A DNA stretch of 63,926 nucleotides, the filler included, from Octopus bimaculoides (Eukaryota), in the NCBI RefSeq assembly GCF_001194135.2. It is 7 parts of 6 records of this genome, joined end to end, with 100 filler letters (N's around TTAATTAATTAA, not from the genome) between each part and the next. Parts side by side here need not be neighbours in the genome. Positions count along the whole stretch, not along the records: positions 1 to 31,621 come from NC_068985.1; positions 31,722 to 40,468 come from NC_068997.1; positions 40,569 to 45,920 come from NC_068985.1; positions 46,021 to 58,864 come from NC_068983.1; positions 58,965 to 60,422 come from NW_026349693.1; positions 60,523 to 62,435 come from NW_026320139.1; positions 62,536 to 63,926 come from NW_026393168.1. One strand, given 5' to 3'. The notes below the pieces were generated by a model, which was not told where the DNA came from, did no database searches, and worked only from the letters and a program-made list of their open reading frames with translations. Every line of letters starts with the position of its first letter. Positions within the stretch are counted from its first letter, which is position 1. The translations under genes were made by a program, and so were the position numbers. This document shows positions 20,730 to 63,118 of this stretch, piece after piece.

Positions 20730-20791
20730 GTTGTTTAATACTCCGCCTCAACAATTCTACTTCATCAAAATCCTTGAAGAAATCGTTTATT
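20730..20791 (-). CDS. Exon 14; INDFFKDFDEVELLRRSIKQ, phase 2 to 1
   Basis: Acceptor gttgttgtccag, donor AAC|gtaaat, in frame with exon 13. Confidence 0.6.
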
Positions 20792-21595
20792 CTGGACAAC
20801 AACTATCAACTTATACGTCGAATTAAACGTACATTGACATGCGACAACTTTTTTTTTTCCTTCTGCTATCATTTGCATCTACTTCAAATCTGTCAATGGC
20901 AGTTCAATTGGACATTATTAACCTTTCATTCACTTTTATTTTTCATTTGTTTATATTCGAAGGATTAGTAGAGTTGGTGGAGAACTGTTAAAAAAACCCC
21001 AAAAGATTAACCCTTTCGAGCTATTTGTTTACGAGTCTTTTATATTCTGAAATCAGATCACGCCGATGTCGACGTAGCTTTTTTTTTTAATTCTTCAAAG
21101 GTCGATCAAATAAGCTTGTGACCAAAAGGATCGTTTTAATTCACTTTTCATCTCAATCCATTCAGTTGTTGTCTATGAAAACTCAGCCTGACGTGGCCAC
21201 TTTGATCTTTACTGATCTGTAGGCCACAATTGTCCACGCAAATATCTTGCGGTTCTTTCTTTCTTTCTTTCTTTAGCGTACATATTCTCGTATGTTTATA
21301 CTCATGCGACTATATTGAATCAGTTTCATGTGCAGAAGAATTGGTTATCAACACTTTCTTTATTTCGCCTCTTCCTTCAGAGAAACACGATCTGTCAGCG
21401 CTCATCTCTACCGCAAATTACAATAATTTGCAATCTTCACTTGCCAAGAAAACATACACCAGCTTCACTGAATTATTAAAGCTAGACAATTCTTCGCGAG
21501 GATTGTATCCTTCCTGACAAATCCACTCAATCAAAAGCTTCAGTTGCACTCTCCAGACACGCAACCAACCTTTTCTGAGACTTATAACCTCTTAC

Positions 21596-21670
21596 ATCGA
21601 AGACAAACCAGACTCAGCTAAACTGGCCAGTCTAATTTGCATAACAGTACATTCGCTGGTAACGTGTTTA
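21596..21670 (-). CDS. Exon 13; KHVTSECTVMQIRLASLAESGLSS(I), phase 2 to 2
   Basis: Strong acceptor tttatttatttatttcag, donor GAT|gtaaga, one fully open frame. Confidence 0.65.
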
Positions 21671-21919
21671 CTGAAATAAATAAATAAAGCAACACAGTGT
21701 TTACTGAATAATCTGAAACTTTTAATGCAAGCTACGCTTACAATTTAAATCGCATTGCGTTTAATGCAAACGAATGCAAACAAACAGTTTTATCTATCAG
21801 TAGAAAAAATTGGGGATTGTTCCAACTATTTTCATCTTCATTTGGAGATTAATTTGAAAATTCTAACCCTCCCGCTATGACCCTTAAAATTTTGTGAATA
21901 ATATTAGTAAGGCGCATAT

Positions 21920-22375
21920 CAAGCCAATCCTCTTTGATCGTGCTGCTCATTTTTACTATGACGTATTGAAAGAAAGCGGCTTCAAAGACACAATATCTTA
22001 TATATTGTGTAGTGCATAATTAATTGATCGATTAATTATTTATTTAATTAGTTATACATATGTCATTTACTCAGAAATACTATGTTTCTTCGTATCAGCA
22101 AGGAGCCTCCATGTAATCGTTCTATCTTCTTTTATAATTGTATCATAATTCTATTCACATTTAGGATGTATTGTAAGGGTCGCTACTAGAATAGTACTTT
22201 ACCTTTAGGTTACCGTAAGGATATAAAGCAAACATGACAGTAATATTCGTAAACACAAGAGTAAGAAGCAAAATATTATGATATAAACCTCCCTGTAGTT
22301 TAAATGATTGAACGAATGTTGGTGGAGTTTTTTTTTTCTAATCTTTATAGATAAGCATTGTCCAGTAACCATAGA
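21920..22375 (+). mobile_element. Penelope-like element, RT-to-endonuclease linker remnant
   Basis: LFDRAAHFYYDVLKESGFKD and (frameshifted) KQNIMI..PPCSLND*TNVGG..FLIFIDKHCP, matching PLE RKRNIIWFNPPFSxNVKTNIGKxFLxLIDKHFP. Confidence 0.6.
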
Positions 22376-22624
22376 TAACCTAGAGCTGGCAACATTGTTA
22401 CTGTGCCGGATAAAGTGCTTAGCGTCACTTAGTTCGTCTTTACGTTCTGAGTCCAAATTTCGCCACGGTCAACCTTGCTTTTCATTCTTTCGGGGTCGAT
22501 AAAATAAGTACCAGTTGTACAACTAGGGTCGATGTAATCGACTTAACCCTCCCTTAAAATTACTGGCCTTGTGTAAAAATTTGAAATCGTTAATGTATGT
22601 AAGAAACAGGGCTGTTTGTTGTCA

Positions 22625-22858
22625 CCGCTCCTGTTCGGAAAGAACCCTCAAATGTTACACGACAAGCACTTGACTGGAACCCGCGGGGGAAAAGGAAGCG
22701 AGGACGCCCGAAGCAGACATGGAAGTGGAGCATTTTGGACGAGCTTAGGAACACCGGCCTTTCATGGGAAGCAGCCAAGAAACACGCCAATGACCGCAAA
22801 AATGGGAAAATAACTGTTGAGGCCCTATGTTCCACAAGGAGCAAAAAGGATTAAGAGA
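22625..22858 (+). mobile_element. RTE-clade LINE 3' end
   Basis: RKEPSNVTRQALDWNPRGKRKRGRPKQTW...TGLSWEAAKKHANDRKKW...VEALCSTRSKKD*. Confidence 0.85.
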
Positions 22859-23606
22859 GAGAGAGAGAGGGAGAGAGATGTAAGAAAGTCGGCAAGCTTG
22901 CAGCAACATCAGCGCGTCTTTTATCCTTTCGGGATCGATAAAATAACTACCGGTTGAGAACAAGGGTCGATGTACTTGATCGTCCCATCCCACAAGATTT
23001 CAGGCCTTGTGTCGATTGTAGAAAAGATTAATGTACCCAAGACTACATTAACTAACGTTTTCTTTCTTTATGAAGATCGTATGGTGTTATTTGAGAAATA
23101 TTTGGTTGCTATTTCTAGCAGGTCGTGTGATCACGTAGAGAAATTTTTTGATGACATGTGTATGATTGGTGGGCGTTTATTTAGACCGAACATATTGGCA
23201 AACAGAAGTCGAAGGTGTCAATTTTCTTCTCTTACCATCTCACTGACACCCTCTCCTACCTCACACTATTTCTCTTTACTTCTCAAGCATAATCATTGTC
23301 CATTTTGCAGACGATATTATCTATTATATTTCGCCCATTTTCTTTCTGTTTCTCCTCTTTATTACTATTTGGTCAATTACAGCAAATGAAGAAATAATAA
23401 TACAGAAGGACATTATAATAGCAATATCTCAACAAAATTGTTTTTAGACTTTCATTTTCTCATCATCAATATCGTCAATTTCCCAAGCTGTTCACTTGAT
23501 TACTTTAGCGAATAATTTTTTTTGTTTTTCAATGCACGACTGAATCTGCTTGCTCATGCAATGTGAAATAATATGTATATAGGCTGTTGCGATAGTGTCT
23601 CCTTAC

Positions 23607-62028: not shown

Positions 62029-62095
62029 CGCTGTTTCCGATTTCATTATAGGTTCGTTCATAGATCGGTTTACTCAATCGCCCCATTGATCCGTT
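62029..62095 (-). CDS. Exon 3; NGSMGRLSKPIYERTYNEIGNS, phase 0 to 1
   Basis: Acceptor aatcttcactcag, consensus donor GCG|gtaagt, one open frame. 168-nt intron to exon 2. Confidence 0.75.
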
Positions 62096-62263
62096 CTGAG
62101 TGAAGATTGTTTGTGTCTGACAATGATAGCATTAGTTCTTTACGATTGTATGTTTTTTCTTACTTGATGAATGGACTTCTCGAGAAACAACTGCAAGTGG
62201 AATTTACTACAATAATGTAATATGTACTAATATACAGAAATATGCAATGACTATTATTTTTAC

Positions 62264-62342
62264 CTTGTCTTGCATATCACTCTGTGTAAAAGACCTTTTA
62301 GCTAGGAATACAACCATGTTTACAATATAGAGCGGCGATGGC
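62264..62342 (-). CDS. Exon 2; PSPLYIVNMVVFLAKRSFTQSDMQDK, phase 2 to 0
   Basis: Acceptor ggttctag, donor AAG|gtaaaa. Only one of three frames is open, and it fits both neighbours. Confidence 0.65.
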
Positions 62343-62639
62343 CTAGAACCTCAGACCCTGCCAGAATAATACACAGAGATCTTAACCGATTTAAATATAT
62401 ATGTGTGTTTAAATATATATGTGTATATATATATANNNNNNNNNNNNNNNNNNNNNNNNNNNNNNNNNNNNNNNNNNNNTTAATTAATTAANNNNNNNNN
62501 NNNNNNNNNNNNNNNNNNNNNNNNNNNNNNNNNNNTGTGTGTGTGTGTGTGTGTGACTTAAATTGGCTTAGTTCTTTATCGGCCCAGGCCGTATCTAATT
62601 TAATAATAGCACCTGGAAAAGTCTTTTAAGTTATGTTTC

Positions 62640-62790
62640 AGGGCATCTTGGACCACTTGAGCAAAGAGTTGCTGTTGGCTGGGACTTATTCAGGTTTTGG
62701 TGGTTTGTCTGTTACATCTTGGAGGAATTTATCCAGGTACTGTTTGAATGTCGTGGGATATTTTTCTACTTTAATTTTGGGTAAACGCTC
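62640..62790 (-). mobile_element. CR1/L2-like LINE 3' end
   Basis: YLDKFLQDVTDKPPKPE*VPANSNSLLKW. Confidence 0.7.
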
Positions 62791-63077
62791 CATAATACAG
62801 GACTATTCGAGATAAAACAAAAAGTTGTGTTGCAATGTTATGTGATGCGAGGGGCAGGTTTTGATACCCAGAACACCCAAAATGGCAGGTAAGGTAATGG
62901 CGACTCCAGTACTCGGGTTGTTCGGGCTTAGCCCGAGTATAAATTTAGTAGAGCCACTTGCATGTTAATTTCAGAGGCAGGCTGGTCCGTTGATCGGATG
63001 AACTGGAGCACACATCGTCGTTGCAAACGACGGAATATCAGTTAGTATAAATCAACCTCATCCTCCACCAACATTAC

Positions 63078-63118
63078 CATTCGATCAATGCCATCGATTC
63101 TTCTATGCAAGAACTGGG
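63078..63118 (-). CDS. Exon 1 (first in window) of uncharacterised spliced gene; PSSCIEESMALIE(W), phase 0 to 2
   Basis: Acceptor gatgactttgtag, with an in-frame TAG right at the boundary; donor ATG|gtaatg. TG plus G of the next exon gives Trp. Confidence 0.6.

Follow-up and report, generated by a model that had tools for sequence, protein, structure and literature searches.

The analyzed stretch of Octopus bimaculoides DNA (63,926 nucleotides, filler included; hereafter, the window) carries on its minus strand a chain of 17 short, AG/GT-bounded candidate exons that spans 62 kb and holds a continuous frame of 385 codons. Fourteen of these segments had been proposed, from the sequence alone, as a minus-strand gene with GT-AG exon boundaries. 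All of them were relocated de novo, with AG/GT ends in 14/14 cases and exon lengths of 40–116 nt. Their join leaves one stop-free frame, the other two containing 23 and 30 stops (counted with the exon 4 acceptor at 59241), and the 311 codons reported earlier are recovered with acceptor 59244, compared to 310 aa with the alternative acceptor 59241. The gene was described as 5′-partial, which holds, but the 14-exon model is 3′-partial as well because exon 14 terminates in a donor, without a stop. Beyond 20730 the frame is carried on by three top-scoring segments (11515–11459, 4290–4187, and 1624–1564), giving a 17-exon model that is partial at both 5′ and 3′ ends, since exon 17 also terminates in a donor. 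The candidate exons, in order of the chain, are as follows.

63078..63118, minus strand: exon 1, 41 nt, out-phase 2; weak, splice+codon score 3.5
63078..63195, minus strand: rival form of exon 1, other frame, 39 aa, phase-0 donor, score 5.5
62264..62342, minus strand: exon 2, 79 nt, phase 2>0; weak acceptor, score 2.8; donor within an inverted-repeat arm
62029..62095, minus strand: exon 3, 67 nt, phase 0>1; strong, score 10.0
59202..59244, minus strand: exon 4, 43 nt (40 nt from 59241), phase 1>2; strong, scores 7.8 and 9.3
46599..46676, minus strand: exon 5, 78 nt, phase 2>2; good splice sites, weak codon score (1.9)
41487..41579, minus strand: exon 6, 93 nt, phase 2>2; His/Cys cluster, score 7.2
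38107..38171, minus strand: exon 7, 65 nt, phase 2>1; strong, score 8.7; entirely inside an inverted-repeat arm
37260..37299, minus strand: exon 8, 40 nt, phase 1>2; weak donor, score 2.1
34419..34462, minus strand: exon 9, 44 nt, phase 2>1; strong, score 10.9
32382..32497, minus strand: exon 10, 116 nt, phase 1>0; weak splice sites, score 0.4; high GC contrast; alternative acceptor 32523
27723..27791, minus strand: exon 11, 69 nt, phase 0>0; W-x-C-x2-C knuckle, score 9.2
23607..23668, minus strand: exon 12, 62 nt, phase 0>2; weakest of all, score -0.6
21596..21670, minus strand: exon 13, 75 nt, phase 2>2; strong, score 10.1
20730..20791, minus strand: exon 14, 62 nt, phase 2>1; donor at end, without stop; score 3.1
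11459..11515, minus strand: exon 15 (added), 57 nt, phase 1>1; top splice-site pair in the window's unique sequence (12.9)
4187..4290, minus strand: exon 16 (added), 104 nt, phase 1>0; second frame open too
1564..1624, minus strand: exon 17 (added), 61 nt, phase 0>1; score 9.8; donor at end

Exons 3–7 are linked without any weak-splice bridge, and exons 2, 3, 4, 5, 7, and 10 each have a single open frame, which is the frame used in the chain. A second frame is also open in exons 6 and 16, and rival boundaries are present at exons 1, 10, 11, and 16. The phase-0 donor of the rival exon 1 (63195–63078) would splice straight to exon 3, and exon 11 holds an internal rival acceptor (27766, phase 1) that is slightly stronger. 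Several introns of the chain contain N-gaps, and no internal repeat was found within the 385-aa chain. An independent splice+codon score marks exons 1, 2, 5, 8, 10, 12, and 14 as weak (−0.6 to 3.5 bits); of the four exons suspected earlier of being chance fits, 8, 10, and 12 are among these, whereas exon 9 is strong (10.9 bits).

Coding signal of the candidate exons

The sequence-only reading took the chaining of phases as an argument for a gene. The frame is indeed open, but this argument is weak, as a search by splice score alone also assembled an open plus-strand chain of 25 exons (score 41.0; minus strand, 46.3; 20 shuffles, 29.9 ± 5.8). An open chain is by itself little proof of a gene when an equally long one exists on the plus strand, and this result favors the foremost alternative, in which the chain is a path picked by hand out of intergenic or intronic DNA laden with old transposon relics, few or none of its segments are joined by splicing, and no such protein is made. 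We regard such a chance path as rather unlikely, even though the junction phases also speak for it: the 13 junctions of the 14-exon chain fall into phases 0/1/2 as 3/3/7, an excess of phase 2 (likelihood ratio 0.22 for the pan-eukaryote distribution, 44/31/25%, PMC10639083, relative to a uniform draw).

Against chance stands the base composition of the exons. The exon-minus-flank GC contrast is 0.074, compared to 0.012 ± 0.025 in other open AG..GT pieces (p = 0.007), and codon positions are biased (p about 0.02), with GC1 (0.453) exceeding GC3 (0.350; p = 0.016–0.017) and G1 exceeding G2 in the chain frame (p = 0.025–0.030; overall codon-position chi-square, p = 0.10–0.11), all of these tests being inflated by the original choice of exons for protein-likeness. 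Using a splice+codon score that was not trained on the chain exons, we found 24 minus-strand segments of ≥7 bits, against 10 plus-strand ones and 8.6 ± 2.4 per shuffle (n = 40); 9 of the 13 top minus-strand segments overlap chain exons, two of them with a different donor or frame. The minus-strand excess depends on the threshold: with the unedited repeat mask it was 21 vs. 10 at 7 bits (p = 0.035) and not significant at 6 or 9 bits. The complement control yielded 18 segments. This excess argues against a chance path, as does the in-phase prolongation of the frame by three top-scoring segments. The GC contrast, the codon-position bias, and the segment excess provide modest support for a gene. 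Counting against a gene, branch-point-like motifs accompany only 5 of 14 exons (27% background), and no minus-strand T/G skew was seen when it was looked for.

The strongest signal of the segments is their splice sites, which would also suit real exons of a decaying gene or of an RNA that is spliced but non-coding, with an open frame that arose from the way the reader chose the boundaries. Exons 12, 15, and 16 are less protein-like than the median chance piece, residues 250–385 do worse than shuffled versions of themselves with each of the four unrelated profiles (z −1.5 to −1.8), and the rival boundaries at four exons leave room for such a choice. However, the codon-position bias lies in the reader's frame, and the six exons with a single open frame are open solely in the one used, and we consider a non-coding or decaying origin improbable.

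RNA reads, homology searches, and inverted repeats

Exon junctions that would confirm the proposed splicing were looked for around exons 11–14 in three RNA-type runs, X1, X3, and X5 (reads over 20625–28300; ~6% of X3 and X5), and none was among the 15 joints listed, beside which there were 1957 further joints. Depth was zero over exons 11 and 12 in these reads, and no exon-shaped depth was seen at exon 13 in the same repeat-dominated runs of unspecified tissue. A depth of 2.18 in X1 falls in the bin with exon 14 and is not traceable to any one piece. Contigs from run X2, which may be the assembly's own source, cover exons 11, 12, and 13 with 0–1 differences; X1, RNA by guess, contains 0.11 of the words of 62000–63200, which counts as no evidence. 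No RNA run was among those listed by the sequencing-run search. The absence of RNA junctions among the joints listed for exons 11–14 favors a chance path, as does the absence of homologues of the exons searched. The hidden multi-exon gene proposed earlier gains from composition and from the splice+codon excess; its single transcript was not confirmed.

That the gene has no recognizable homologue was upheld in every search, each made with single exons (20–56 aa, some lengthened by a few in-frame intron codons). A search for homologous proteins (71–2000 aa) gave no match for exon 10, the rival exon 1, or exon 6, and exon 10 had two matches among representative proteins, both bacterial repeat proteins with 0 passing stretches. 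Twelve exon peptides reached E = 0.013 at best against Pfam, under the cut-off, 13 peptides each gave no significant match in PHROGs and NCBIfam, and the best PDB value was E = 0.21 (exons 5, 6, 7, 10, 11, and 13, and the 48.5 kb frame). The Atlas returned only short unnamed clusters for exon 10, viral and metagenome contigs gave only chance matches of 8–19 residues, and phage tblastn gave E ≥ 8. Across the window, none of 281 frames (of 304 plus-strand and 319 minus-strand frames, the 140 most protein-like per strand, and one more) rose above the Pfam cut-off, which again favors chance, and Rfam gave 0 matches. No paper describing this gene or any diverged Slo paralogue of cephalopods was found, which does not imply absence from print.

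The frame at 48422–48590 (score 0.93) was weighed as an additional exon, then left out because it is probably a remnant of gag. The 48.4–48.6 kb segment is as exon-like as the chain exons, yet resembles such a relic, which favors the chance path.

Exons 2, 3, and 7 lie in two imperfect inverted repeats, both unique to the locus:

38059..38607, no strand: inverted repeat, arms 38059–38212 and 38436–38607, 67–77% complementary
61970..62271, no strand: inverted repeat, arms about 61970–62037 and 62184–62271

The first spans exon 7 and both of its splice sites, and its duplex beats 150 of 150 control windows (folding z −8.0 on the minus and −5.6 on the plus strand). In the second (z −4.1 minus, −3.8 plus), the exon 2 donor region would pair with the exon 3 donor and intron 3. 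Editing-complementary sequences of ADAR targets are intronic inverted repeats that pair with an exon, and exon 7 and the exon 2/3 donors would likewise pair, in long imperfect duplexes, with intron sequence close by. Unlike the expectation for ADAR-type duplexes, the octopus repeats show no G-U bias toward the transcribed strand, the G-U/A-C mismatches being symmetric (14 vs. 15 and 4 vs. 4). Decayed fold-back transposons should show this symmetry and would look the same, which is a further point for the chance path.

Predicted product and comparison with known systems

We conclude that the chain probably marks a real, lineage-restricted, unconfirmed minus-strand gene. Most of the 17 segments would be exons of one fast-evolving, rarely expressed protein-coding gene, spliced into one mRNA whose expression may be low or tissue-restricted. 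The exact chain is probably wrong in places, and the 14-exon version is unlikely to be correct as it stands; bridge exons 1, 2, 5, 8, 10, 12, and 14, or exons hidden in N-gaps, may depart from the true transcript. A division into at least two transcripts (e.g., exons 2–9 and exons 11–17), tied only via the weak bridge exons 8, 10, 12, and 14, is very improbable, for although the strong pairs 7–9, 9–11, 11–13, and 13–15 are phase-compatible only via weak exons, exon 9 could reach the 27766 acceptor directly with exon 10 skipped, and several introns carry N-gaps, no start or terminal exon was identified between the groups and the minus strand has a single AATAAA in 18000–20730.

A single minus-strand gene would encode a soluble protein of the alpha/beta class, a fold suggested by alternating hydrophobic patterns judged by eye, with a zinc knuckle predicted in it; the protein would most likely be a regulatory or binding module rather than an enzyme or channel. 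The maximum 19-residue hydropathy in the 385-aa chain is 1.55, with no window at transmembrane level. Of the His/Cys clusters earlier suggested, as speculation, to be metal sites, the exon 11 CxxC has a weak match in the PDB (E = 0.21) to the L37Ae zinc ribbon at its second knuckle and may bind zinc, whereas the exon 6 cluster had no match in homologue, Pfam, or PDB searches. Likenesses to HUH endonuclease, cGAS/Mab-21, PI3K-type C2, NYN, helicase, and USP, which we took from the chain by eye, were dropped; that so many families fit by eye is a warning in its own right.

The fold lead ranked first, and a doubtful one, would be the RCK (gating-ring) domain of Slo/BK channels. In a comparison by eye with residues 329–508 of Aplysia Slo1 (PDB 5TJ6; PF22614, PF03493), exons 4–10 share a few short words with Slo1/BK RCK1 (e.g., RHF, ED.AN, and AEL), similarly ordered and spaced, in an alignment that requires about ten gaps. 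Against three bacterial Slo-like RCK profiles (glocal), the chain reached z = 2.0 (a score attained by 9 of 300 shuffles), 0.0, and 1.2, compared to z of up to 2.4 and 3.0 for unrelated controls and 9.7–40.9 for true RCK; the lead is rated this low because its scores stay within the control range. An 89-sequence pore profile detected no K+ pore signature in the window's six frames (best E = 1.9), there is no calcium-bowl word in the window, and the 385-aa chain has none of the transmembrane helices expected of a Slo/BK channel. Fainter still is the chance that the gene is a cephalopod-restricted, pore-less, extremely diverged Slo/BK gating-ring relative (RCK1, Cys knuckle, RCK2) acting as a soluble potassium-channel modulator, with exon 7 in an intronic RNA duplex governing its editing or splicing. 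A pore-less Slo-like gating-ring protein would be surprising, but its supporting evidence does not exceed chance level.

Tyrosine kinase or pseudokinase identity was rejected. Exon 5 weakly resembles the start of the JAK2 kinase domain (PDB search, E = 1), and a 48-sequence profile gave no HMMER match and z −1.1 to 1.4, compared to z = 5.3 for the positive control, a remote kinase with masked catalytic motif.

The strands and helices predicted after the exon 11 CxxC may be RPA70C-like, and this CxxC resembles the second knuckle of an RPA70C-type OB fold. Such folds with a zinc ribbon are described for RPA1, SPIDR, SHLD2, RADX, and MEIOB in PMC11377751. The RPA70C zinc ribbon has two CxxC knuckles, whereas the 311-aa chain has one, the first being absent, and no second CxxC was found among candidate exons of intron 10, which includes a 100-N gap of indefinite size (30979–31078).

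The 17 small exons suggest an old gene that diverged past detection rather than a de novo birth. If real, it would be a gene rich in introns that ORF scans overlook and that the searched protein collections apparently lack, and an example of old, unrecognizable cephalopod genes that escape annotation. Orphan multi-exon genes are an already known class, and interest hinges on the fold assignment. PMC8059200 cites numerous cephalopod-specific genes from Albertin 2015, expects taxonomically restricted genes to show narrow expression, and demands ORF conservation in two species as proof. Compared to such orphan cephalopod genes, the octopus candidate differs in being known from DNA sequence alone, and shares with them the lack of a detectable homologue and, probably, narrow expression.

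Structure of the proposed minus-strand exon chain

All 14 minus-strand exons proposed over 20730..63118 by the sequence-only reading were found again from lists of open frames and splice sites, without its protein as a query. Their described sizes and ends hold (40-116 nt, AG/GT at all 14), as does the phase chaining without a stop to 311 aa: the joined exons are open in one of three frames and give 311 codons when the 59244 acceptor is used. Compared to all minus-strand GT/AG dinucleotides, the splice sites have combined p-values of 2e-9 (donors) and 6e-6 (acceptors), having been selected for this property. 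The model has no stop codon and exon 14 closes with a phase-1 donor; three added segments (exons 15-17), with splice scores among the best in the window, prolong the frame to 385 codons, and this chain likewise terminates in a donor. Segments discussed by coordinate are:

63195-63078 (-), rival exon 1, other frame, 39 aa
62095-62029 (-), exon 3
41579-41487 (-), exon 6
38171-38107 (-), exon 7
32497-32382 (-), exon 10
27791-27723 (-), exon 11
21670-21596 (-), exon 13
11515-11459 (-), exon 15
4290-4187 (-), exon 16
1624-1564 (-), exon 17

Exon chain versus chance

We consider it somewhat better than an even bet that the chain is a real, partial gene, as yet unconfirmed; that it is a chance path is unlikely, that its segments are non-coding or decaying is improbable, and that they belong to several transcripts is very improbable. 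Open chaining was not above chance: dynamic programming on splice scores alone yields a 25-exon open chain on both strands (scores: 46.3 minus, 41.0 plus, 29.9 ± 5.8 in 20 shuffles). The phases 0/1/2 of the 13 junctions among exons 1-14 (3/3/7) count against the gene model, being 0.22 times as likely under the frequencies given in PMC10639083 (44.3/31.2/24.5%) as under a uniform draw, and branch-point motifs and strand skew added no support. Modest support for real exons comes from GC contrast, codon-position bias, and an excess of exon-like segments. Exon-minus-flank GC was 0.074 in the chain versus 0.012 ± 0.025 in other open AG..GT pieces (p=0.007), and in the chain frame GC1 exceeds GC3 and G1 exceeds G2 (p 0.016-0.030), with an overall codon-position chi-square of p=0.10-0.11. 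A combined splice and codon score with generic parameters, run with four places of known chain exons unmasked, gave the minus strand 24 segments of at least 7 bits, versus 10 for the plus strand and 8.6 ± 2.4 for 40 shuffles; nine of the 13 top minus-strand segments overlap chain exons. Under the original repeat mask the counts were 21 vs 10 (p=0.035; complement control 18), without significance at 6 or 9 bits. Individually, exons 3, 4, 6, 7, 9, 11, 13, and 15-17 score 7-11 bits, and exons 1, 2, 5, 8, 10, 12, and 14 score -0.6 to 3.5. Of the four exons suspected earlier of being chance fits, 8, 10, and 12 thus remain suspect, and exon 9 does not.

Reads from four sequencing runs (X1, X2, X3, X5) were compared over 20625-28300, covering exons 11-14; among the runs listed as matches, none is recorded as RNA. 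X2 behaved as genomic DNA and confirmed the sequence over exons 11-13. Depth was zero in the bins with exons 11 and 12 in X1, X3, and X5, and at exon 13 a depth of roughly one read was seen in X5 alone among these three, there in one of the two bins. None of the 15 joints listed (1957 further joints were present) is an exon junction, and dispersed repeats dominate. With about 6 in 100 of the 12.9 (X3) and 11.5 (X5) million reads read, abundant expression in the sampled X1, X3, and X5 is ruled out, as distinct from expression as such.

Inverted repeats, transposon remnants, and alternative joins

Window self-comparison revealed an imperfect inverted repeat pairing 38059-38212 with 38436-38607, and exon 7 sits entirely inside one of its arms; a second inverted repeat (61970-62271) takes in the exon 2 and exon 3 donors. 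The window has no dispersed copy of four of the 27 local inverted repeats; read depth marks one of the four as a high-copy element, and two of the other three overlap exons of the initial 14. The exon 7 duplex outscores 150 of 150 control windows (folding z -8.0 minus, -5.6 plus). G-U and A-C mismatches in the arms are symmetric, so the duplexes fit a decayed fold-back element as well as an editing-complementary sequence. At 21440-21740 (-), exon 13 and its downstream intron form a duplex of -59.8 minus vs -40.6 plus (approximately the top 5% of controls), with a local fold of only z -1.85.

Other elements in the window are:

48389-48595 (-), 69-codon frame with good splice-like sites
30552-30977 (-) and 37300-37733 (-), presumed GIY-YIG endonuclease and reverse-transcriptase end of Penelope-like elements
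56716-57132 (-), 62550-62965 (-), 10906-11172 (-), 13714-14091 (+), 59967-60257 (+), presumed decayed transposon frames
40569-40705 and 41562-41698, direct duplicate (137 nt, 100% identical)
51171-51755 and 8056-8644, fold-back elements whose inverted arms flank short telomere-like hexamer arrays

The 69-codon frame is probably a gag relic rather than an exon, because Atlas groups 56 aa of it with gag clusters of retrotransposons (score 0.93, 25/30 matches in the gag set). The five decayed frames we take to be LINE endonuclease or reverse-transcriptase ends and Mutator-like and Tc1/mariner-like transposase pieces; Pfam had no match for these or the Penelope-like frames. An N-gap adjoins each copy of the duplicate, probably an assembly artefact, which covers the exon 6 acceptor and first 18 nt.

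Exon 1 has an alternative reading in a different frame that would bypass exon 2, and exon 11 an alternative internal acceptor at 27766.

Predicted product and comparison with known families

Database queries were single exons (contiguous window stretches of 20-56 aa), and none had a significant match in Pfam, PHROGs, NCBIfam, PDB, or Atlas. Exons 10, 6, and rival exon 1 had no match among proteins of 71-2000 aa; against 1.84 billion representatives, exon 10 retrieved two bacterial repeat proteins alone, neither with a passing stretch. The Pfam cut-off was reached by none of 281 searched frames (from the window's 623 longer non-repeat frames). The earlier description of a gene with no recognisable homologue therefore stands for single-exon searches, which remote homology could still escape; a near-identical annotated orthologue with exon 6 or 10 should have surfaced if in the searched collections.

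The chain has no transmembrane helix and one CxxC, weakly like the second zinc-ribbon knuckle (L37Ae, E=0.21). Because of these features and the family tests, we favour a soluble product of the alpha/beta class that carries a predicted zinc knuckle and most likely serves in regulation or binding. A weak match of exon 5 to JAK2 prompted the idea of a tyrosine kinase, which was rejected: a 48-sequence profile gave no HMMER match and chain z -1.1 to 1.4. Three of five motif-masked fetched control sequences had z 5.3-26 (two of them inside the profile), and the other two, without a kinase frame, had 1.3 and -1.2.

Among fetched loci L010-L102, two bacterial MAGs (GTDB) contain tyrosine-kinase genes that are interrupted by introns and lie in tandem arrays (OZ220042, OZ219999, OZ219983, OZ220019, CBDBCZ010000015, CBDBCZ010000017); these look like DNA of an animal host that was binned with the bacterial sequence. 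Nine loci (L018, L028, L034, L036, L039, L060, L061, L069, L084) encode bacterial repeat-rich proteins in which the short word of the tyrosine-kinase catalytic loop occurs outside any kinase domain. Locus L104 (76-2370, +) encodes a bacterial protein of 764 aa, in which a solute-binding-like N-terminus is joined to a channel-like segment and an RCK region; the RCK region has animal BK channels, not MthK, as its top PDB matches.

RCK is the first fold lead for the chain, a doubtful one. Short words are shared in the same order with Aplysia Slo1 residues 329-508 (Slo/BK RCK), with many gaps required; three bacterial RCK profiles gave z-scores of 2.0, 0.0, and 1.2 for chain residues 50-225 (unrelated controls up to 2.4 and 3.0), and the window has no Slo/BK pore or calcium-bowl signature. 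The RPA70C-type OB fold, another candidate and described for RPA1, SPIDR, SHLD2, RADX, and MEIOB in PMC11377751, differs in having a first zinc knuckle that the chain lacks. If real, the candidate gene falls in a known class, the taxonomically restricted genes, for which PMC8059200 requires ORF conservation in a second species.
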